A DNA stretch of 54,954 nucleotides from an uncultured Clostridia bacterium (GTDB taxonomy: Bacteria > Bacillota > Clostridia > Christensenellales > CAG-314). The notes under the pieces were generated by a model, which saw only the letters and a program-made list of their open reading frames with translations, was not told the DNA's origin and ran no database searches. This document shows, in pieces, positions 40,295-48,680 of this stretch. The position numbers and the translations under genes are program-made. The stretch spans positions 1-54,954 of the forward strand of contig CANRHN010000005.1 of NCBI GenBank assembly GCA_947630425.1, written 5' to 3'. Position 1 is the stretch's first letter. Each line of letters begins with the position of its first letter.

Positions 40295-40456
40295 TGTTCG
40301 CACCTCTCAAATTTTTTTGCCATTTTATTGTACAAGATTACTTTCAATCCGTCAAGCGTTTGAACCAAAAGTATGGCGCGGGAATTTTTTGCGTAAACGT
40401 TGTCAAAAAATGCATAAAGTTATATAATGATATTCGACTACAACAAGGAGAAGCGT

Positions 40457-41374
40457 ATGTCGGATATTGTTATTTCTACGACCAATCTTACCAAAAGCTA
40501 CAACGGCGTTCGCGTGGTAGACAATGTTACTCTCACGGTAAACAGCGGCGCAATCGTGGGCTTGGTGGGCAAAAACGGCGCGGGCAAAACCACGTTGCTA
40601 AGACTTTTAACGGGCTTGGTCAAACCCGATTCGGGCAGTTTTGAGTTGATGTCGGGCGTTGCGCGTAACAGCACCGACGTGGCAGCAATAGTGGAAAGTC
40701 CATCGTTGTACAACAATCTTTCCGCTGTGGAAAATTTGCAAATTCAGTGCAAGCTGCTGGGAATAAAGGAAGACTTTAACTACCTGAACCAAACGCTTGG
40801 TTTGGTGGGTTTGAATTCGCAAAACAGGCGCAAGGTCAAAAATTACTCTTTGGGAATGCGTCAACGCCTTGCGATAGCCATGGCGTTGGTGGGCAAGCCC
40901 AAATTGTTGCTGTTGGACGAGCCTACAAACGGTCTCGATCCGGACGGCATACGACAAATGCGAGAAATTTTGACAACTCTAAACCGAGAACAGGGCGTAA
41001 CGGTGCTTGTTTCCAGCCACATTTTGTCGGAATTGAGCAAGCTTGCCACGGAGTACTACATCATGGAAAAGGGCAAGGTGCTCAAGCACGTCACCGCCGA
41101 GGAGTTGGAAGAAAACCAAGGCAACAGTTACCGCATTTCCGTCAACAATGCGGAAGCGGCAGAGGCAGTGCTTGCCAAGCTCGGGCGTGTTGTCAGAGTG
41201 GGCTCGGCTCAAATAGAATTGTTTGCGGACGCTTCTGTAACGCAAATTTTGCTGTTGTTGGCAGAGGCGGACGTAATCGTTTCGGGCATAACTCGGTCGG
41301 GCGACGCGTTGGAAGACTTTTATGTTAAGACGCTGCGCGAAACCGAGTCGCAAAACAAAGGAGGCGCACAATGA
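40457..41374 (+). CDS. ABC transporter ATP-binding protein (BcrA/lantibiotic-immunity-like)
   Basis: [35 protein letters not shown]. Confidence 0.9.
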
Positions 41375-42195
41375 CCAATATATTGTCCGTGTTGTTTTAC
41401 CGTCTCAAAAAGAGCAAGTTGTTTTGGGTGATGTTGGGAGTGACGGCAGTGTTGCCGATACTTTCGGTGTTGCTTTTGGTAACCTTGGGTGCGTTTGTGT
41501 CTCCTTTTTTTGACGAGGCGGAAGTCGGTTTTTGGGAAATCCTTCACGAACTCAACATCACAACGTCGGAGCTTTCTTCCTATGGCGATTTGATGCACAT
41601 CTCGTCGTTGCTTGCAATCATCACATCAAGCGTCTTTTTGAGCAAAGAGTTTTCCTACGGCACGTACCGTAACGTTTTGCTTGCCAATCGCAGTCGTTTG
41701 GAGCTGTACGCCTCTCACCTGATTGTGTCTATGGTCATCGGCGCCGGTTTTTTGGGCGCGTCGATGACAACAACGCTTGTCGCTTCGGGCGCGGCGTTTG
41801 GGTTTGGTCAAATGCCTGCATTGGAGTGTGTCGGCGCAGTGGTAACGGCTTTTGCAATGGGTCTTGTGTCTGTGGCTTTTGCGCAGGTGCTGATGTGCAT
41901 GCTGTTGTTCTGCACGCGCAGATTGGCGGTTGCGCTTGCCTGCTCGATAGTGATATGTATGGTCGCGCCCGGTCTCATTGCGACGTTTGTGGAGTTGATG
42001 GGCGTTTTCAGCTTGCTGTCGGCGGGAGAGGTGAACATAGACTCGACTTGGACGCCGCTCTACAACGCTTCTTTGTTGGACGTTGCGGATTTGAACGGCG
42101 CGCTTGTCGGCAAAATTCTACTCTACCTTGTGCCCTTGACTGTGTTTTTCGGCTTTATGGGCTGGGTGGGCTTCCGCAAAGCGGATCTTAAGTAA
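41371..42195 (+). CDS. ABC-2 type permease
   Basis: Six TMs, [17 protein letters not shown]; overlaps the ATPase stop. Confidence 0.85.
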
Positions 42196-42268: not shown

Positions 42269-42916
42269 CTACCAAACAAAGTTTGCCCGCGCGCTTTCGC
42301 CGTTATCTATCACTATGTCCTGCGCGGTCATAGACTTGTTCACAACGGCGACAAAGTACACCCATTCGGCAATTTCTTCGGCTGACGCCCACTTTTTTAG
42401 GGGCGTTTCCTCCATTATCTGTTGCCAAAGGCGAGGTTCGTTCATCACGTGAGCGTTCAGTGGCGTTGTCACTCCTCCGGGCGAAATACTGTTGCTTGTA
42501 GCTCCCCAAGGGGCAACGCGTAAAGCAACGTTTTTCATATAGCTTACAACCCCGCCCTTGGAAGCGACGTACTCGGGAAATTCCGATCCCGTCGTCGCGC
42601 TTGCAGACGCCACAAAGACAATGCTTTTTATGCCTTTACGCACTCCGTATTGCTCCGTTATGCGCATTGCGCCCTTCAAATTGACGTCGATGTCCCGTCC
42701 GCTGTTTTGCACGCCCGCGTTGTTGACAAGCACGTCCACGTTGTCAATTTGCGGCAATTTGTCGCAAGCCACGTCCGCCACAAAGTGCATGTAGCGCGCG
42801 TGACGAATGTCGGCGGGAAGCACGTCCAAGCCCACAACGTCGTGTCCGCAAGAAAGAAATTTTTGCGCAACGGCTTTTCCTATTCCATTGCTGCTGCCCG
42901 TAACAAGCACTTTCAT
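42269..42916 (-). CDS. Short-chain dehydrogenase/reductase
   Basis: TGSSNGIG, NNAG, YVASK, NSISPG. Confidence 0.92.
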   Translation of the reverse strand: MKVLVTGSSNGIGKAVAQKFLSCGHDVVGLDVLPADIRHARYMHFVADVACDKLPQIDNVDVLVNNAGVQNSGRDIDVNLKGAMRITEQYGVRKGIKSIVFVASASATTGSEFPEYVASKGGVVSYMKNVALRVAPWGATSNSISPGGVTTPLNAHVMNEPRLWQQIMEETPLKKWASAEEIAEWVYFVAVVNKSMTAQDIVIDNGESARANFVW

Positions 42917-43665
42917 TGTTGCACCTCAAACTGCGCTATGTAGTCAAAGTAGGCTTTGCCCACCTGTTCCTTTTTCCATTTGCGGCAGACCGCGTAGCCG
43001 AGCGGACTGAACACCGCCTCGCACAACAACTCCGCCAACATTCCTGTTGCCGCACACGTAAGACATTGAAGGATGCTCCAACTGAAAAAGAAGTGGCTCA
43101 CGATGAGCGCGAATATAAGATTGTCGGCAAATTGAGCGATTGCGGTGGAAACATACGTGCGACACACGTACGCGCCAAAGCCGTCGGGGTGCTTGTGAAA
43201 CGCTTTGCCTATGCCCCAATTTGCAAAATTGTTGATGAGCGCAGAGGCAACAAACGCCACGGTACTGCCCGTCACAACAAACCAAGTGCCGCCGAAAGTG
43301 CTGTTCAAGGCGTCGTTTACAACCGGTTGCTCTCCAAAGTCGAAAAATGCGCCCCAGGTTCCGCCAATCACGCTGCCGAGAAATGTCATCAAGCAAGCCA
43401 GCAAGTTTGCGGCAATGGCAAACAGCGAAATCATTGTGGCGGCTTTTGGTCCAAAGTGTTTCGTAAGCACGTCCATGCACAAAAACGCCACCCAAGAAAC
43501 GATTATGCCGCAATCCAACGCCAGCCAACTGACGTTCAAGTCTATGCTTTTGTTGGCGAGCAAGTTCATCGTAAACACCGACAGCACAAACAAGCATACC
43601 GCCGTTGAGGGAACAGACCTCATCAAAGCGCGCCATTCGCCGCAAAAACGTTTGAATTTTTCCAT
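42913..43665 (-). CDS. VUT family (YhhQ-like, queuosine-precursor-type) transporter
   Basis: NLLANK, FLCMDVLTKHFG..AA, RTYVSTAIAQFADNLIF. Confidence 0.75.
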   Translation of the reverse strand: MEKFKRFCGEWRALMRSVPSTAVCLFVLSVFTMNLLANKSIDLNVSWLALDCGIIVSWVAFLCMDVLTKHFGPKAATMISLFAIAANLLACLMTFLGSVIGGTWGAFFDFGEQPVVNDALNSTFGGTWFVVTGSTVAFVASALINNFANWGIGKAFHKHPDGFGAYVCRTYVSTAIAQFADNLIFALIVSHFFFSWSILQCLTCAATGMLAELLCEAVFSPLGYAVCRKWKKEQVGKAYFDYIAQFEVQQ

Positions 43666-43669
43666 AAAA

Positions 43670-43766
43670 AAACTCCTTGTTTTTTAGTCCCTTCAAAGGG
43701 CGTCGACAGCGGCTTTCGCCGTCGATTGCAAACAGATGGTTACTGCAAGGACAACATCTGTTGCGT
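43670..43766 (-). ncRNA. Candidate translational riboswitch with preQ1-like pseudoknot
   Basis: Lies downstream of TTGACA-17-TATACT (43771-43799). Stem acagatg/catctgt has a loop UCCUUG complementary to the SD-overlapping CAAGGA, followed by two further hairpins and an A-rich linker. Confidence 0.55.
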
Positions 43767-43838
43767 TACAAGTATACAAAATTTGTCGCACGGTGTCAAA
43801 GCATTTGCAAAGAAATATGGGAAATTGCCTCGTTTTGC

Positions 43839-43867
43839 TTGACTTTGTAACGAATGACGGCTAAAAT
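43839..43867 (+). promoter_or_regulatory. SigA promoter for the met leader and metNIQ
   Basis: TTGACT-17 bp-TAAAAT. Confidence 0.7.
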
Positions 43868-43908
43868 AGTAGTATAATTTTTCGTCGGACATCGACAAAG
43901 AGGAAACA

Positions 43909-43989
43909 ATGAAAAGGACAAATCTCAAAATGGTCATGTGCATGTGCAATTCCCGAGCTGAGCGCGGGTTTTTGTCCATGACTTTTTAG
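43909..43989 (+). CDS. Putative Met/Cys-rich attenuator leader peptide (26 aa)
   Basis: SD AGAGGA; MKRTNLKMVMCMCNSRAERGFLSMTF*; overlaps the 5' arm of the antiterminator. Confidence 0.75.
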   Translation: MKRTNLKMVMCMCNSRAERGFLSMTF

Positions 43990-44011
43990 GGACAAACACT
44001 CAACGGCTTTC

Positions 44012-44041
44012 AAGCTCGGGATTGTTACCCGAGCTTTTTTT
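44012..44041 (+). terminator. Attenuator terminator upstream of metN
   Basis: aagctcggg-attgtta-cccgagctt plus T-run; its 5' arm can alternatively pair with tcccgagct at 43951-43959. Confidence 0.85.
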
Positions 44042-44063
44042 GTGCGATTTTCAGGAGAAAACA

Positions 44064-45047
44064 ATGATAGAGTTGAAAAATCTTACCAAAACATACCCAA
44101 CGATCGGCGGCGAAGTGGTTGCGCTCGAGGACGTCAACTTGACAATTCCCGACGGGGCGATATTCGGCGTGATAGGTCTTTCGGGAGCGGGCAAAAGCAC
44201 GCTTGTAAGGTGTCTCAATCTGTTGGAACGTCCCACATCGGGGCAGGTTATCATCGACGGCGAGGACATCACAAAGATTTCTAAAAAACAACTGCTGCAG
44301 TTGCGCCGCAACGTGGGAATGATTTTTCAGGGGTTCAACCTTTTGGAACAGCGCACAGTGGAGGCAAACGTGCGGTTTCCGTTGGAGCTTGACAGAGTTC
44401 CGCGCAATCAAGCCGCCGCGCGAGTCGCCGAGTTGTTGGAATTGGTCGGTCTGTCCGACAAAGCCAAAGCATACCCGTCGCAGCTTTCCGGCGGACAAAA
44501 GCAGCGCGTAGCCATTGCAAGAGCGCTTGCCACCAAGCCCAAGTACGTGTTGTGCGACGAGGCCACAAGCGCATTGGACCCCACCACGACGGAATCGATT
44601 TTGCAACTTGTGAAGGACGTCAACAAAAAGTTAGGCGTTACGGTTGTTGTCATCACCCACGAAATGCGCGTTGTGGAAAGTATCTGCACGCACGTTGCGG
44701 TCATAGACAACAGCCGTATTGCGGAGACGGGTTTGGTCAGCGAGGTGTTCAGTTACCCGCAGTCGGACATTGCCAAACAGCTGATAATTCCCAACCTCAT
44801 ACGTTCCCTTGCGGGCGGCGAGGGCACAAAATTGCGGTTGGTGTTCAACGGCGAACAGTCTGATGAACCGATAGTTTCCGCTTTGGCAATGGAGTGCCGT
44901 GTTGCCGTCAACATTCTTTATGCCGACACAAAAAACATCGACGGCAAGGCGTTCGGACATATGGTAATCACCGTTCCCGACGGCAAATCGGCAACGGTAA
45001 CAAAATTTTTGGACGCGCACGGCGTGTCGTACAGGGAGGAAGTATGA
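44064..45047 (+). CDS. metN: Methionine ABC transporter ATP-binding protein
   Basis: GLSGAGKSTL, YPSQLSGGQKQR, CDEATSALDP, C-terminal NIL domain. Confidence 0.95.
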   Translation: MIELKNLTKTYPTIGGEVVALEDVNLTIPDGAIFGVIGLSGAGKSTLVRCLNLLERPTSGQVIIDGEDITKISKKQLLQLRRNVGMIFQGFNLLEQRTVEANVRFPLELDRVPRNQAAARVAELLELVGLSDKAKAYPSQLSGGQKQRVAIARALATKPKYVLCDEATSALDPTTTESILQLVKDVNKKLGVTVVVITHEMRVVESICTHVAVIDNSRIAETGLVSEVFSYPQSDIAKQLIIPNLIRSLAGGEGTKLRLVFNGEQSDEPIVSALAMECRVAVNILYADTKNIDGKAFGHMVITVPDGKSATVTKFLDAHGVSYREEV

Positions 45048-45739
45048 GCGTACTGTTTACACAATTGTGGTCTAACGGCGGATTTTGGCTGGGAGTGTGG
45101 GAAACGTTGTATATGACGGTGACGTCTGCGGTGCTTGCGTATATCATCGGTTTGCCGCTCGGAGTGGTGTTGGTGCTGACCGACCGCGACGGACTGTCAC
45201 CTGTGGTCTGGTTAAATAAAATTCTTGGAACTGTCGTCAATCTTGTGCGTAGTTTTCCGTTTATCATTTTGATGGTGGCATTGGTGCCTGTGGCGGCGGC
45301 ATTGTTGGGCTCAAGCATAGGAAACGGAGCAATGATTTTTATGTTAGTGGTGGCAAGCGCCCCGTTTGTTGCGCGGATGGTGGAATCGTCGCTGAAGGAG
45401 GTGGACAAGGGCGTGATAGAAGCAGCCCGTTCGATGGGAGCAAGCAATTTCCAAATTATTTGTAAAGTGTATCTCCCCGAAGCAAAACCCTCTTTGATTG
45501 TGGGCGCGGTCATTTCTACCGTTACCATATTGGGGTATTCGGCGATGTCCGCCACTATTGCGGGCGGAGGTCTCGGTGCAATTGCGACCAGAGCGCGCAA
45601 CGTATATGCTGATGATGTTATATGGTTGTGCGTGGCTTTAACGGTAGTTGTCGTACAAGTCATTCAGGAGGGAGGCATGTTTTTGGCTCGCAAGGTAGAT
45701 AAACGTCGCCGTGTCAACAGACGAACCAAACAATCCTAA
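45044..45739 (+). CDS. metI: Methionine ABC transporter permease
   Basis: ETLYMT, RSFPFIILM, EVDKGVIEAARSMGAS, GYSAM..GGGLG. Confidence 0.93.
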   Translation: MSVLFTQLWSNGGFWLGVWETLYMTVTSAVLAYIIGLPLGVVLVLTDRDGLSPVVWLNKILGTVVNLVRSFPFIILMVALVPVAAALLGSSIGNGAMIFMLVVASAPFVARMVESSLKEVDKGVIEAARSMGASNFQIICKVYLPEAKPSLIVGAVISTVTILGYSAMSATIAGGGLGAIATRARNVYADDVIWLCVALTVVVVQVIQEGGMFLARKVDKRRRVNRRTKQS

Positions 45740-45823: not shown

Positions 45824-46669
45824 ATGAAAAAAATTATTACTTTTGTTTTGATAGCGGCACTTGTTCTTACAATTGCTTTTGCTTTGGTGGGTTGCGACAA
45901 AGCTCATACCATTACAGTGGGCGCAAGTGCCACTCCCCATGCTGAAATTCTTGAAGTAATCAAAGACGGATTAAAAGAAAACGGTTGGAAATTGAAAATC
46001 AAAGTTTTTGACGACTACATAACCCCCAACACGGCATTGGATGAGGGCAGCCTTGACGCCAACTATTTTCAACACACGCCCTATCTTGAGGACTTCAACA
46101 AAAACAACAACACCGACCTTGTGAGCGTGGGAAAAATTCACTATGAACCGCTGGGTCTTTACGGTAAGGGAGTGACGCCCACACAATACAAAACGGCGAG
46201 TTTTGACAAAACCAATCGAACCATTCTTGTTCCCAATGACGGTAGCAACCTTACCCGCGCGCTCTTCCTGTTGCAAGATGAAGGTTTCATCACATTGCGA
46301 GAAGGGGCCCAGGCAACAGATACGCTCACTCTGGAAGATATAAAACAAACCAACAGCAACACCATCAGTGATGTAGATGCCGCCACGGTTGCAGCGCATT
46401 TGAGAGACGCCGACAGTGGCACATTGGCGGTAATCAACGGTAATTTCGCATTGTCGGCGGGATTCAAAATTGCAAAAGATGCACTTGCGGTGGAAGATGC
46501 CAATGGAGACGCGGCGCAGTTGTACGCCAATATCATTGCCGTGAAACATGGTAACGAGGAATCCGAAAAGACTAAGGCGTTGCTTGCCGCGCTTTACAGC
46601 AAAGAGGTGTACGACTACATTCTTGCCACCTACAACGGCTCAGTTGTGCCCGTGTTTACGGTGGAGTAG
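45824..46669 (+). CDS. metQ: Methionine ABC transporter substrate-binding lipoprotein
   Basis: Lipobox LVGC, PHAEIL, DANYFQHTPYL, PND.SN..RAL, YANII. Confidence 0.93.
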   Translation: MKKIITFVLIAALVLTIAFALVGCDKAHTITVGASATPHAEILEVIKDGLKENGWKLKIKVFDDYITPNTALDEGSLDANYFQHTPYLEDFNKNNNTDLVSVGKIHYEPLGLYGKGVTPTQYKTASFDKTNRTILVPNDGSNLTRALFLLQDEGFITLREGAQATDTLTLEDIKQTNSNTISDVDAATVAAHLRDADSGTLAVINGNFALSAGFKIAKDALAVEDANGDAAQLYANIIAVKHGNEESEKTKALLAALYSKEVYDYILATYNGSVVPVFTVE

Positions 46670-46847
46670 CAGAGGGAACAATCGACAACAGCCAATTTTC
46701 GGCTGTAACAACCCTTTGTCGTATCAGCAGCGCCTCTTGCTGCTTGTAAAAACAGTTGAAAAAAACTTTGTTTTTTGCTATACTGTAAAATGAAGTAGTA
46801 GGCGTCAAATTGCAAGCGCGATTTTGCCCGACTCAAACGGAGAAAAT

Positions 46848-48680
46848 ATGAGTATATCCAACAAAACCGAAGATTGCAACAATTGCGAAAAAATCAAATC
46901 GGTCAGAAAAACAAAAATAGGCGGTCAAGCCGTTCTCGAAGGCGTAATGATGCGCGGCAACAGCAGCATGGCGCTTGCTTGTCGCGACGAAATGGGCAAC
47001 ATACGCTTGGATACCACGCGCCTTCCCGCCAAAAAGCCATGGTACAGGAAAGTACCCTTTGTTCGCGGCGTCGTAAATTTGGTAATTTCCATGATCTCGG
47101 GCGTCAAAATCATCGGCAAGTCCGCCGAAGTTATGGTGGAGGACGTTGACACCAAGGGCGACGGCGGCGGCATGGGGTGGATGATGTTTGTGTCTACCCT
47201 TTTGGGACTTGGCTTGGCAATAGCATTGTTCATTTTGGCGCCGACCTTTCTCACCCGCGGCATTTTCGGATTGGTAAAATTGAATATAGGGGATCTCAAA
47301 TGGGCGTGGCTCAAATCGTTGCTCGAGGGCGTGTTCAAAATTGTTGTGCTTGTGGTGTACATGGCGACAATTTCCTGTATGAAGGAAATCAAGCGTGTGT
47401 TTATGTACCATGGAGCAGAACACAAAACAATCGCCTGCTACGAAGCGGGCTTGGAATTGAACGTGGAAAACGTCAAAAAGTGCAGTCGCTATCATGACCG
47501 TTGCGGCACCAGCTTCATTGTTTTTGTTGTGGTGTTGTCGGTAATTCTCATGATGGTGTTGGACGTGGTGTGCGCCGCTTGTCATTGGGATTTTTTCTTG
47601 AAAAACGAACATTGGTGGCTCAGGGCGTTGCTCAAAATTGCCTTGTTGCCCGTTGTCGCAGGTATCAGCTACGAAATGTTGATGTTGCTTGCATGCAGCA
47701 ATTTCATTCTGTTCCGTCCTCTCAAATGGTTGGGCAAGCAGTTTCAAAAACTCACCACGCGCGAGCCGGACGACGGCATGTGCGAGGTGGCAATCGCTTC
47801 CTTCAACGCGGTGTTGGAAATGGACGCAGATCCGACCATACCCGAACGTCACTTCCCCGACCCTGTAAGCTTGGCGGAATTTCGCAAGTCGCTGGAGGAA
47901 AAGTGTCCCGAACTTGTACAAAGCGTCAAGGGGGATGTTGATTGGCTTGTGTGCGCCGTGCTGAACATCGGCAAAGAGGATCTTCTCAATCCCAAAGTAA
48001 AAGTTCCTTTCGGTTGGCTTGTTCGTCTTGACAAAATGTCGGAGAGGCTTGCGCAGGGCGAACCATGGCAGTACGTCGTGGGTGCAACGGGGTTTTACGG
48101 ACGCACTTTCAAATTGGACGGCAACGTTCTCATTCCCCGTATGGAAACGGAACTTGTGTGCGAGGAAATGCTCAAGCACGTTCAGTCCAAAGCCAAAGTG
48201 TTGGATATGTGCTGCGGCAGCGGTATTCTCGGCATTACCGCTGCATTGGAAAAGGAGTGCGACGTTACGCTTGCCGACGTGAGCAAGGAAGCTTTGAAGA
48301 TTGCCAAAGTCAACGCCAAGCAAAACAAAGCCAACGTAAGCTTTGTGCAAAGCGACATGTTTGAACAAGTAAAGGGCAAATACGACGTGATTGTGTGCAA
48401 TCCGCCTTACATCGAAAGCGACGTTATCGAAACGCTGGACGCAAGCGTAAAGAATTACGAGCCGAGACTTGCCTTGGACGGCGGCGCGGACGGGTTGGAT
48501 TTTTACAGGAAAACAGCCCAAGTCGTCACGTCGCACTTGCGCGAAAACGGGGTACTTGTGTTGGAAATCGGGTACAATCAGGGCGAAGCCATCAAAGCGT
48601 TGTTCCAAGACAAATTTGACGTGCAAGTTTCCAAAGACTACGGCGGAAACGACCGCATTGTCGTTGCGCGTCTCAAGTAA
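46848..48680 (+). CDS. prmC: Fusion of DUF1385 membrane domain and release-factor glutamine methyltransferase PrmC
   Basis: N-terminus GGQAVLEGVMMR, YHGAEHK, RCGTSF, QKLTTREP; C-terminus EPWQY, LIPRMETE, LDMCCGSG, NPPY, ALDGGADGL, EIGYNQ; single frame. Confidence 0.9.
   Translation: MSISNKTEDCNNCEKIKSVRKTKIGGQAVLEGVMMRGNSSMALACRDEMGNIRLDTTRLPAKKPWYRKVPFVRGVVNLVISMISGVKIIGKSAEVMVEDVDTKGDGGGMGWMMFVSTLLGLGLAIALFILAPTFLTRGIFGLVKLNIGDLKWAWLKSLLEGVFKIVVLVVYMATISCMKEIKRVFMYHGAEHKTIACYEAGLELNVENVKKCSRYHDRCGTSFIVFVVVLSVILMMVLDVVCAACHWDFFLKNEHWWLRALLKIALLPVVAGISYEMLMLLACSNFILFRPLKWLGKQFQKLTTREPDDGMCEVAIASFNAVLEMDADPTIPERHFPDPVSLAEFRKSLEEKCPELVQSVKGDVDWLVCAVLNIGKEDLLNPKVKVPFGWLVRLDKMSERLAQGEPWQYVVGATGFYGRTFKLDGNVLIPRMETELVCEEMLKHVQSKAKVLDMCCGSGILGITAALEKECDVTLADVSKEALKIAKVNAKQNKANVSFVQSDMFEQVKGKYDVIVCNPPYIESDVIETLDASVKNYEPRLALDGGADGLDFYRKTAQVVTSHLRENGVLVLEIGYNQGEAIKALFQDKFDVQVSKDYGGNDRIVVARLK

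Follow-up and report, generated by a model that had tools for sequence, protein, structure and literature searches.

The question raised by the locus described here is how transcription of a methionine importer operon, metNIQ, is controlled when its leader matches no known family of regulatory RNA. Leader-peptide attenuation is a textbook mechanism, and methionine genes are run by S-adenosylmethionine (SAM) riboswitches, T-boxes, MetJ/MetR or LysR-type regulators. The operon lies on a DNA stretch of 54,954 nucleotides (nt) (contig CANRHN010000005.1 of assembly GCA_947630425.1; the whole stretch is called the window below) from an uncultured Clostridia bacterium, whose genome (G000) has a size of 1.44 Mb and is 97.5% complete. 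The initial annotation had read the region before metN as an attenuator in which a ribosome stalled on Met and Cys codons of a short leader peptide permits read-through, and the promoter, Shine-Dalgarno (SD) sequence, 26-codon open reading frame (ORF), M-V-M-C-M-C cluster and terminator that it described were all recovered at the positions it gave (Table 1). The analysis reported here indicates that the metNIQ leader is probably a Met-tRNA-sensing, ribosome-mediated (leader-peptide) transcription attenuator; the signal that it likely senses is the supply of charged elongator tRNA-Met, through which it would control the importer operon.

Homologous leaders were found in 14 genomes belonging to two families of one Clostridia order, always with metN-metI downstream (14 of 14). 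A DNA search of 82 genomes of the same family returned the leader in five genomes of the same genus; a covariance model built from these close relatives (model R1) added G050, G038 and G071, a further model (model R2) led to four genomes from one genus of the second family, and the leader of G076 came from an independent survey of metN loci. The homologous leader peptides are MKRTNLKMVMCMCNSRAERGFLSMTF (G000), MKKLTLKMVMCMCNSRAERGFLSMTF, MERFVLKMVMRMSDPRAKRGFLSMTF, MKKVTLKMVMCMCNSRATRGSLSMTF, MKKVSLKMVMRMCNTRTKCGLLSMAF, MKKVTLKMVMCMCKPGLGAGICS, MLTTLKMMMRMFNSRANTRGHFFVVR, MLQIKFANQIMCMCKNRAKKRGFCVML, MIFRATNMMMRMFSTRAEMRGDFALLF, MANTLKMMMRMLNSRAGVRGSFAFAE, MATNSFKMMMRMLLSRANARGFFALSK, MKRFAYTHSMRMQSSRATSAGLLPC, MATNSFKMMMRMLQSRANTHGFFALSE and MNGLLINKTMRMFASGHKVVRGYIRVAVMR.

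Every one of these leaders has a start ATG and a frame that stays open to an in-frame M-x-M core, with a start-to-cluster spacer of 18, 21, 27 or 30 nt, always a multiple of 3, and in 13 of them an SD-like purine run lies 4–9 nt before the start (it is weak and distant in G038). AUG occurs at the equivalents of M10 and M12 in 14 of 14 leaders and at the equivalent of M8 in 11; the cluster holds three Met codons in six leaders, four in five and two in three, and in the five leaders with a fourth Met it replaces Val9, so that the sequence reads M-M-M-R-M. The N-terminal codons vary freely, Leu6 being kept through CTC, CTT, TTG and CTA, and the U and the G of AUG at M12 never vary although neither is paired. 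The ORF and its Met cluster, on whose conservation before metN the initial annotation had staked its proposal, are thus kept throughout. The Cys codons (43939–41 and 43945–47 in the window) fare differently, position 11 being Cys in 5 of 14 leaders and position 13 in 6 of 14, and otherwise Arg, Ser, Phe, Leu or Gln. Because the Cys codons are not conserved, the leader is read here as a Met sensor and not a Met/Cys sensor, and of the sulfur-amino-acid attenuator first proposed the methionine half stands (M-x-M in 14 of 14) while the cysteine half falls. Beyond the cluster a 1-nt deletion in G036 and a 5-nt hairpin loop in G243 disrupt the reading frame but leave the RNA helices intact, for which reason the peptide C-terminus is not regarded as a selected feature; almost every leader has its stop codon at the 3' foot of the large hairpin. 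This pattern of conservation indicates that selection acts on the start, on the in-frame Met codons and on the downstream RNA structure, and not on the peptide product. Against the background of the G000 genome, where Met makes up 1.7% of residues in long ORFs, the cluster is rare: five of 1129 SD-preceded ATG ORFs of 8–45 codons carry at least three Met within six codons, and the metN leader ORF is the only one of those five with a terminator-like hairpin downstream.

The long hairpin described by the initial annotation can indeed form: TCCCGAGCT (43951–59, strand A) is exactly complementary to AGCTCGGGA (44013–21), and the accompanying tttgtcc/ggacaaa pairing is present as an inner hairpin, P2 (TTTGTCC at 43971–77 with GGACAAA at 43990–96). 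The A:C pairing is kept across the homologues with compensatory changes in its flanks, and strand C is shared by A:C and by the terminator helix C:D, which the initial annotation took to be mutually exclusive. What the initial annotation did not contain is an additional trap (anti-antiterminator) hairpin at 43928–43987 that sequesters strand A. When RNAalifold was applied to six close sequences, this hairpin and the C:D terminator were returned, and not the long hairpin. At its base strand R1, AAA.GGUCAUG (43928–38, encoding M8/V9/M10), pairs with strand R2, CAUGACU.UUU (43977–87); in the middle GCA (43940–42) pairs with UGU (43973–75) and AA (43948–49) with UU (43971–72); and at the top A (CCCG.GC, 43952–58) pairs with B (GC.CGGG, 43962–68), which locks strand A. 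P2 belongs to the antiterminator fold, is mutually exclusive with R1:R2 and is pre-formed once R1 is masked; judged by eye, its conservation outside the six close relatives is loose.

Comparison of the 14 sequences supports both folds. In helices 1–3 of the trap hairpin 11 pairs are changed on both sides, with GGUCAUG/CAUGACU becoming GAUGAUG/CGUUGUC in R1:R2 of the MMM-type leaders and, in A:B, G-C becoming A-U in G029 and C-G becoming A-U in G050. The terminator is present in 14 of 14 leaders (helix 4 is 97.9% paired, with three pairs changed on both sides). For the terminator-state fold as a whole (28 pairs) 87.9% of cells are paired, compared with 22–48% when the partner is slid by 1–3 columns, and for the antiterminator A:C (11 pairs) 83.3%, compared with 18–49%. 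The 14 pairs of the terminator-state fold that are changed on both sides were reached by 0 of 500 column shuffles, and A:C, with five such pairs and a covariation score of 0.181 versus 0.103 in shuffles, was reached by 1 of 500, figures that are not probabilities, as the sequences are related and the alignment is model-fitted. The informative changes in A:C lie in its flanks, where changes in the base or bases preceding the CCC of strand A are matched by changes at the start of the terminator loop (U-A in six cases, A-U in three and U-G in one; at the next position G-C, U-A, C-G, A-U and G-U). A terminator by itself would call for no such covariation. Twelve of 14 leaders likewise share the core GCUCGG(G) in the 5' terminator arm, a conservation not usual where an arm serves termination only, and in each of the 14 the duplex between the post-cluster segment and the C region has an energy of −16 to −33 kcal/mol.

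The folding energy of the leader is not exceptional (z = −1.41; 20 of 200 shuffles fold as well), so the case rests on conservation and not on energy. The unconstrained fold of 43885–44045 is the long hairpin closed by 43951–59/44013–21, at −43.8 kcal/mol. In G000 the terminator state (−45.6 kcal/mol, obtained under an A:B plus C:D constraint that recovered the natural hairpin) and the antiterminator state (−46.1 kcal/mol) are nearly isoenergetic; taken singly, the trap hairpin has −19.1, A:B alone −7.8 and the terminator −15.1 kcal/mol. Folding of the growing transcript shows that the trap hairpin is the minimum-energy fold from ~43984 until strand C is out at ~44020.

The effect of a ribosome was modelled by removing the RNA up to its leading edge, with M8, M10 or M12 in the A site. 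For naked RNA the barrier from trap to antiterminator is 19.7 kcal/mol (a direct-path estimate for a transcript ending at 44027), and with the ribosome at M8, M10 and M12, where P2 is already formed, it falls to 7.7, 5.8 and 3.7 kcal/mol, respectively; with the ribosome over strand A no antiterminator can form in the computation. The initial annotation's statement that a stalled ribosome frees the antiterminator is thus upheld as far as the fall of the barrier goes, its omission of the trap hairpin being what needed correction, and none of three computational tests directed at refuting stall-based attenuation did so. All five of the defining features of a leader-peptide attenuator that can be tested in sequence were found: a short, SD-led leader ORF that is conserved as an ORF, its indels being multiples of 3; clustered codons for the amino acid that the operon brings in (three Met in five codons here, two to four Met in the 14 leaders); an intrinsic terminator placed after the leader ORF and ahead of the first structural gene; an antiterminator that shares a strand with that terminator; and an upstream hairpin that holds the regulatory codons and gives way to the antiterminator over a barrier of 19.7 kcal/mol without, and 3.7–7.7 kcal/mol with, the ribosome.

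The mechanism proposed on this basis would run as follows. Transcription would start at ~43875, and the emerging leader would fold into the 43928–43987 hairpin, whose 5' strand holds M8 and M10 and whose A:B top would lock strand A; with A locked, C would pair with D and the resulting terminator would stop transcription at ~44041, leaving the operon OFF. This would be the outcome when no ribosome is present or when the ribosome has gone past and off. A ribosome translating the 26-codon leader would melt the trap hairpin, and with plentiful Met-tRNA it would pass across strands A and B and the stop codon as C and D emerge, covering A or sitting inside the 53-nt loop that A:C must close, so that the terminator would again form (OFF). 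When Met-tRNA is scarce the ribosome would park at M8–M12, just upstream of A, and hold R1 single-stranded; only the weak A:B top could then form, A would pair with C in a duplex extending into the terminator loop, the terminator would be blocked, and RNA polymerase would read into metNIQ (ON).

Several points weigh against this attenuator. All of its support is comparative and computational; the 14 leaders are not independent, six of them being close relatives, and pair counts are favoured by the fitting of the 14-sequence alignment (A5) to the model structure. Three leaders carry only two Met codons, and at M8 and M10 codon and structure constraints are confounded, because helix R1:R2 also requires the nucleotides of the Met region. 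The leader must itself initiate with Met, and severe starvation could also block initiation. With a ribosome at the stop codon A:C is still allowed (barrier 9.4 kcal/mol, gain −16 kcal/mol), and equilibrium pairing probabilities do not separate a Met-stalled from a stop-codon ribosome, the antiterminator being predicted in both; because thermodynamics do not separate stall from stop, the OFF state under plenty would rest on timing, on the ribosome covering A and on sterics. A stall at M12 partly covers A, the predicted pairing of C to upstream sequence dropping to 0.36–0.74 in 13 of 14 leaders and staying at 0.97 in G000. Transcription in Firmicutes is reported to outrun translation; if this holds here a pause site would be needed, and the timing of polymerase and ribosome is assumed in the scheme above. 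When ribosome-masked equilibrium folding was applied to transcripts cut before strand D, C paired with A in nearly every condition.

An RNA-only element (a riboswitch of a new kind, or a target of an RNA-binding protein or of tRNA), whose ligand would stabilise or open the hairpin at 43928–43987 and in which the small ORF would be incidental or secondary, would also explain why conservation of the hairpin and of the A:B/A:C/C:D alternatives is good and accompanied by compensatory changes, why it is in a helix that the best-conserved nucleotides of the Met cluster are found, and why thermodynamic ribosome masks alone give no clean ON/OFF. However, the ATG is in frame with the AUGs in 14 of 14 leaders despite N-terminal indels of 3, 6 and 9 nt. 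The synonymous Leu codons likewise speak for translation, as does the change of Val9 to Met (GUC to AUG), which is compensated in strand R2 and adds a Met codon rather than some other triplet. The 3' side of the hairpin has no conserved bulge or junction and is merely U-rich, no Rfam family matches, the UGGU expected for a T-box-like contact with a tRNA acceptor is absent from MMM-type leaders, and unrelated Met-rich ORFs precede other metN/metQ loci (see below). Control by RNA only is for these reasons judged improbable. If translation is needed, it might still not be the Met codons that matter: the peptide could act as an arrest peptide of the form L-K-M-x-M-[C/R]-M-x-N-S-R-A, as TnaC and SpeFL do in sensing a small molecule in the exit tunnel, or the leader could be a general sensor of slowed translation. 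The residues round the cluster are fairly conserved (L-K before it, N-S-R-A after it), Leu is kept by synonymous codons, and CGA encodes the Arg within the cluster in 8 of 14 leaders, all of which speaks for such a reading. Yet N-S-R-A and R-G are encoded by strands A and B, where the sequence is fixed by base pairing; the peptide after the cluster is lost in G036 and G243; L-K is lacking in 5 of 14 leaders, including G038, G071, G243 and G076 (the F-K of G246 and G247 being counted as present); arrest induced by Met or SAM would turn the importer on at high Met, which is the wrong sign; and what the independent leader designs share is the Met run alone. We give this explanation little weight too.

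The most sceptical explanation, in which the region is an ordinary 5' untranslated region with a fortuitous small ORF and the terminator belongs to upstream transcription, accords with the ordinary folding energy and with the fact that consensus scans for promoters and terminators match shuffled sequence about as often. It is nonetheless very improbable. The upstream gene is on the opposite strand, which places the terminator after a conserved promoter and ahead of metN; all 14 genomes keep the arrangement, three of whose helices show compensatory changes; and SD-led ORFs this rich in Met number just 5 of 1129 in the genome. The Met-codon attenuator is accordingly the explanation carried forward below.

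Table 1. Features of the metNIQ locus (positions in the window)
Feature	Position	Strand	Basis
Promoter	43839–43867	+	consensus scan and conservation in 14 leaders
Small 5' stem-loop GUCG/CGAC, a few nt before the SD	43884–43896	+	part of minimum-free-energy fold
SD sequence GAGG, 5 nt before leader ATG	43900–43903	+	
Leader ORF MKRTNLKMVMCMCNSRAERGFLSMTF, 26 codons plus TAG	43909–43989	+	in-frame homologous ORF in 14 of 14 leaders
Putative regulatory Met codons M8 (43930–32), M10 (43936–38), M12 (43942–44)	43930–43944	+	
Trap (anti-antiterminator) hairpin	43928–43987	+	RNAalifold consensus
Strand A UCCCGAGCU, 5' strand of antiterminator and of A:B hairpin	43951–43959	+	
Inner hairpin P2 UUUGUCC/GGACAAA, stop codon in loop	43971–43996	+	minimum-free-energy fold
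Strand C AAGCUCGGGA, 5' terminator arm and 3' antiterminator strand	44012–44021	+	
Intrinsic terminator, 9-bp stem 44012–20/44028–36, loop 44021–27, T7 44035–41	44012–44041	+	
metN, ATP-binding cassette (ABC) ATPase	44064–45047	+	best NCBIfam match TIGR02314 MetN, E 3.8e-111, 371 bits
metI, permease	45044–45739	+	NF008049 MetI, E 4.2e-52, 177 bits versus cut-off 212
metQ, substrate-binding lipoprotein	45824–46669	+	NF008285 and TIGR00363 (MetQ/NlpA), E 2e-40, below cut-offs

The leader promoter is sigma-70-like (−35 TTGACT at 43839–44, 17-nt spacer, −10 TAAAAT at 43862–67; 10 of 12 consensus matches), and its TTGAC stands at the same position in all 14 aligned leaders. The gene upstream of the leader (42913–43665, with a weak match to a queuosine precursor transporter) is on the minus strand, and because of this orientation the leader terminator sits between the promoter and metN. 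The best NCBIfam matches of metN, metI and metQ are methionine transporter families, all three below the equivalog cut-offs (for metN, the curated cut-off is 499.7 bits). The small stem-loop before the SD may be a 5' stabiliser; in the six close relatives a hairpin of different sequence is seen by eye in its place. A divergent near-consensus promoter on the minus strand (43799–43771, TTGACA-17-TATACT, 11 of 12) faces the gene at 42913–43665.

Elsewhere in the window, a 618-amino-acid ORF downstream of the operon (46824–48680, plus strand) has a match to PrmC (release-factor glutamine methyltransferase) confined to residues 371–613, its first ~370 residues having no NCBIfam match among the matches listed. 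The last 4 nt of an ABC ATPase gene of the lantibiotic-protection/DrrA type (40427–41374) are shared with a 274-amino-acid ORF (41371–42195, plus strand), which matches no NCBIfam family and is probably the partner permease. A scan of the G000 genome for SD-led small ORFs that combine amino-acid runs with a terminator gave MWWTTASTRSKPPTSRWRR and MRLWACWA, both with Trp pairs, at C12:21110 (minus strand) and C7:28451 (plus strand), which may be chance matches. DNA nearly identical to 43700–45100 occurs in animal-gut runs X3–X12, labelled 'rabbit gut metagenome' or 'gut metagenome', from two studies (P2 and P3; a possible source sample was left out), and the 18 rows listed for this region were all DNA contigs, with no RNA run among them.

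The initial annotation saw no S-box or T-box motif in the leader, and Rfam bears it out. With Rfam 15 the whole window gave no match at gathering score, including to the leader-peptide families, among which are the His, Trp, Thr and Leu leaders; at E ≤ 10 the region 43700–44120 gave 11 chance-level matches (E 0.41–9.7), far below gathering and with no SAM or T-box (RF00230) family over the region. The models do work in this lineage, SAM-I being found in 78 of 82 family genomes and T-box models matching leaders of relatives. SAM-I (the S-box) is the usual RNA control of methionine genes in Firmicutes and senses SAM, not tRNA charging; in G000 the single SAM-I (RF00162, C3:16622–16725, 69.9 bits) lies directly before metK (TIGR01034, E 5e-174), which is followed by recD2, and not at metNIQ. 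None of the 24 family genomes with a MetN-like match has a SAM-I next to the MetN-like gene, G029 being the sole genome with the two on one contig, at a distance of 88 kb. Because SAM-I precedes metK, SAM would be sensed there and tRNA-Met charging at metNIQ. Neither MetE (TIGR01371) nor MetH (TIGR02082) has a match in the 97.5%-complete G000 genome, which suggests that the organism is a Met auxotroph; with neither enzyme matched, Met import is probably essential and metNIQ probably the only source of Met. Three T-box-like matches below gathering score occur in G000, at C25:20157–20343, C19:11873–12112 and C4:57575–57743.

As far as searched, the leader family is narrow. In a sample of the order 2 of 151 genomes matched, with nothing further, and in a sample of the class G000 alone scored among 150, both searches being samples, with filters strict enough to miss weak matches. 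When 185,579 species genomes were scanned by pattern, 102 stretches came out, of which 80 were examined and six fit the model, all six with the same leader peptides as known members, so that no new ones were added; pattern matches in Prevotellaceae/Bacteroidales and proteobacteria were rejected, as they lie inside long or antisense frames of other genes. In metagenomes of the Joint Genome Institute (JGI) the strict leader pattern had no match, and a Met-independent pattern (A:B plus C) gave at least 120 stretches, which are regarded as chance matches in unrelated DNA because none of the 80 examined fit model R2. Weak model matches of 25–30 bits (L032, L033, L034, L038 and others) have an SD/start and a terminator only and were not counted as members.

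The control of metN elsewhere in the family was surveyed without regard to Met codons. Of the 82 family genomes, 24 have a MetN-like match (E ≤ 1e-60), and 20 loci were examined (four partial MetN-like ABC matches of ~240 amino acids, in G065, G061 twice, G066 and G002, were left out). Ten of the 20 carry the leader described here, seven an Rfam T-box, two another short ORF (G005 and G006) and one a further design (G004). The T-boxes (98–118 bits) lie directly before the metN-like genes of G069, G011, G009, G020, G047, G010 and G012, seven genomes of the same family, six of them in the same genus. Their specifier position, read by eye, is AUG followed by G, which indicates that they are Met T-boxes, which would sense the same signal. 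In a tree of MetN, rows with a T-box are interspersed among rows with the leader, and even on well-supported branches a minimum of two changes of the leader label is required. G069 (T-box) lies inside the clade of G000, G038 and G243, and five T-box MetNs have a clade of leader-bearing MetNs as their sister. Comparison of sequences shows the leader in the place of Met T-boxes at related loci. G050 groups with the leaders of the second family (98/96), a placement which suggests that operon and leader moved together; the long branches of G076, G004 and G011 are unreliable.

The two remaining designs are also rich in Met. In G005 an SD-led ORF, MSIFSHNLMMMLMP, precedes the metN-like gene (C18:240100–240650, minus strand), its last codons and stop lying in the 5' arm of a hairpin (GCCGUAGG/CCUAUGGC) that is followed by a strong terminator; G006 has a homologue of this ORF, cut by the contig end, with hairpin and terminator following. 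In G004 (contig C4; L278 902–1047) the SD-led ORF MKFRLFDNAMMMQMYMCRMCMFSHS, with seven internal Met in 24 residues, stands before metQ-metN, and a strong 10-bp terminator (1024–1047 plus T7) lies ~190 nt before these genes. Minimum-free-energy folding gave no clear antiterminator for the G005 or G004 designs; the best antiterminator duplex of G004 has −15.4, compared with −9.7 ± 2.5 for shuffles.

The classical leader-peptide attenuators are those of E. coli and Salmonella trp, his, leu, thr, pheA and ilv. The metNIQ leader resembles them in its SD-led ORF with a cluster of cognate codons, in the codon-bearing '1:2' hairpin, in the competition between antiterminator and intrinsic terminator before the first gene, and in the proposed sequence of hungry codon, stall and read-through. 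It differs in the amino acid, here Met; in the operon, here an importer and there biosynthetic; and in the host, here a small-genome Clostridia lineage. Strand A moreover lies in the 5' half of the trap, inside the ORF and 28 nt before the stop, and in plenty the ribosome would cover A or sit between A and C instead of occupying 'region 2'. There is no sequence relationship with the Rfam leader families, none of which matches at gathering score. With Met T-boxes the leader would share the signal (tRNA-Met charging), the output (antitermination) and the position before metN-like genes; however, a T-box works without translation by binding uncharged tRNA itself, whereas the leader would read charging through the ribosome, is ~90 nt shorter and has no T-box match.

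T-box control of methionine transporters in Firmicutes is mentioned in PMC2965389 and PMC7058034. The initial annotation had treated leader-peptide attenuation as a paradigm of Proteobacteria, a view that is too narrow: PMC2965389 reports His leader peptides that replace T-boxes before hisS/hisZ in Bacilli, and PMC5794164 a Leu-rich attenuator peptide of S. aureus ilv. These Firmicutes leaders are a precedent for the replacement of T-boxes by leader peptides and differ from the metNIQ leader in amino acid, operon and sequence, none of them concerning Met or Clostridia. The literature searched yielded just one other kind of sulfur-amino-acid leader peptide, encoded by Cys-rich leader ORFs. In Actinobacteria they are runs of Cys codons before cys/cbs operons, with no conserved intrinsic terminator and with Rho suggested, and it is stated that methionine operons there showed no RNA structures upstream (PMC1262725); 10.1101/834739 describes polycysteine short ORFs of mycobacteria as Cys-responsive attenuators. 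In the metNIQ leader, by contrast, Met is conserved and Cys is not, and there is a canonical terminator/antiterminator pair. The initial annotation knew of no sulfur-amino-acid attenuator in Clostridia, and in agreement with this no Met-codon leader peptide or ribosome-mediated attenuator of methionine genes was found in the full-text literature searched, which excludes subscription papers and supplements; the supplementary attenuator tables of PMC2965389, which lie outside it, could hold Met-related candidates. The metNIQ leader is probably a classical leader-peptide attenuator in mechanism, its Met version being what is new. On balance, though with more reserve, the family as a whole may be put forward as the first described Met-specific leader-peptide attenuator family, with at least three unrelated Met-codon ORF designs in one small-genome Clostridia family that repeatedly replaced Met T-boxes, and with operon and leader having moved between families.

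Methionine has so far been a gap in leader-peptide attenuation, and a Met version is conceptually odd in that the sensor ORF is initiated with the amino acid whose shortage it reports; if the attenuator is real, it would show how a sensor manages when it depends on Met-tRNA for its own initiation and yet has to register the lack of it. Small ORFs of this kind are missed by annotation pipelines, and the compact element of ~150 nt could serve as a Met-responsive part for Gram-positive hosts. The hosts themselves are uncultured animal-gut Clostridia seemingly unable to make Met, in which SAM and tRNA-Met charging would be read separately. The interchange with Met T-boxes, together with the two further Met-rich designs, is a tractable case of regulatory turnover, and if the proposal is true the lineage would be a natural experiment on the birth of ribosome-read attenuators.

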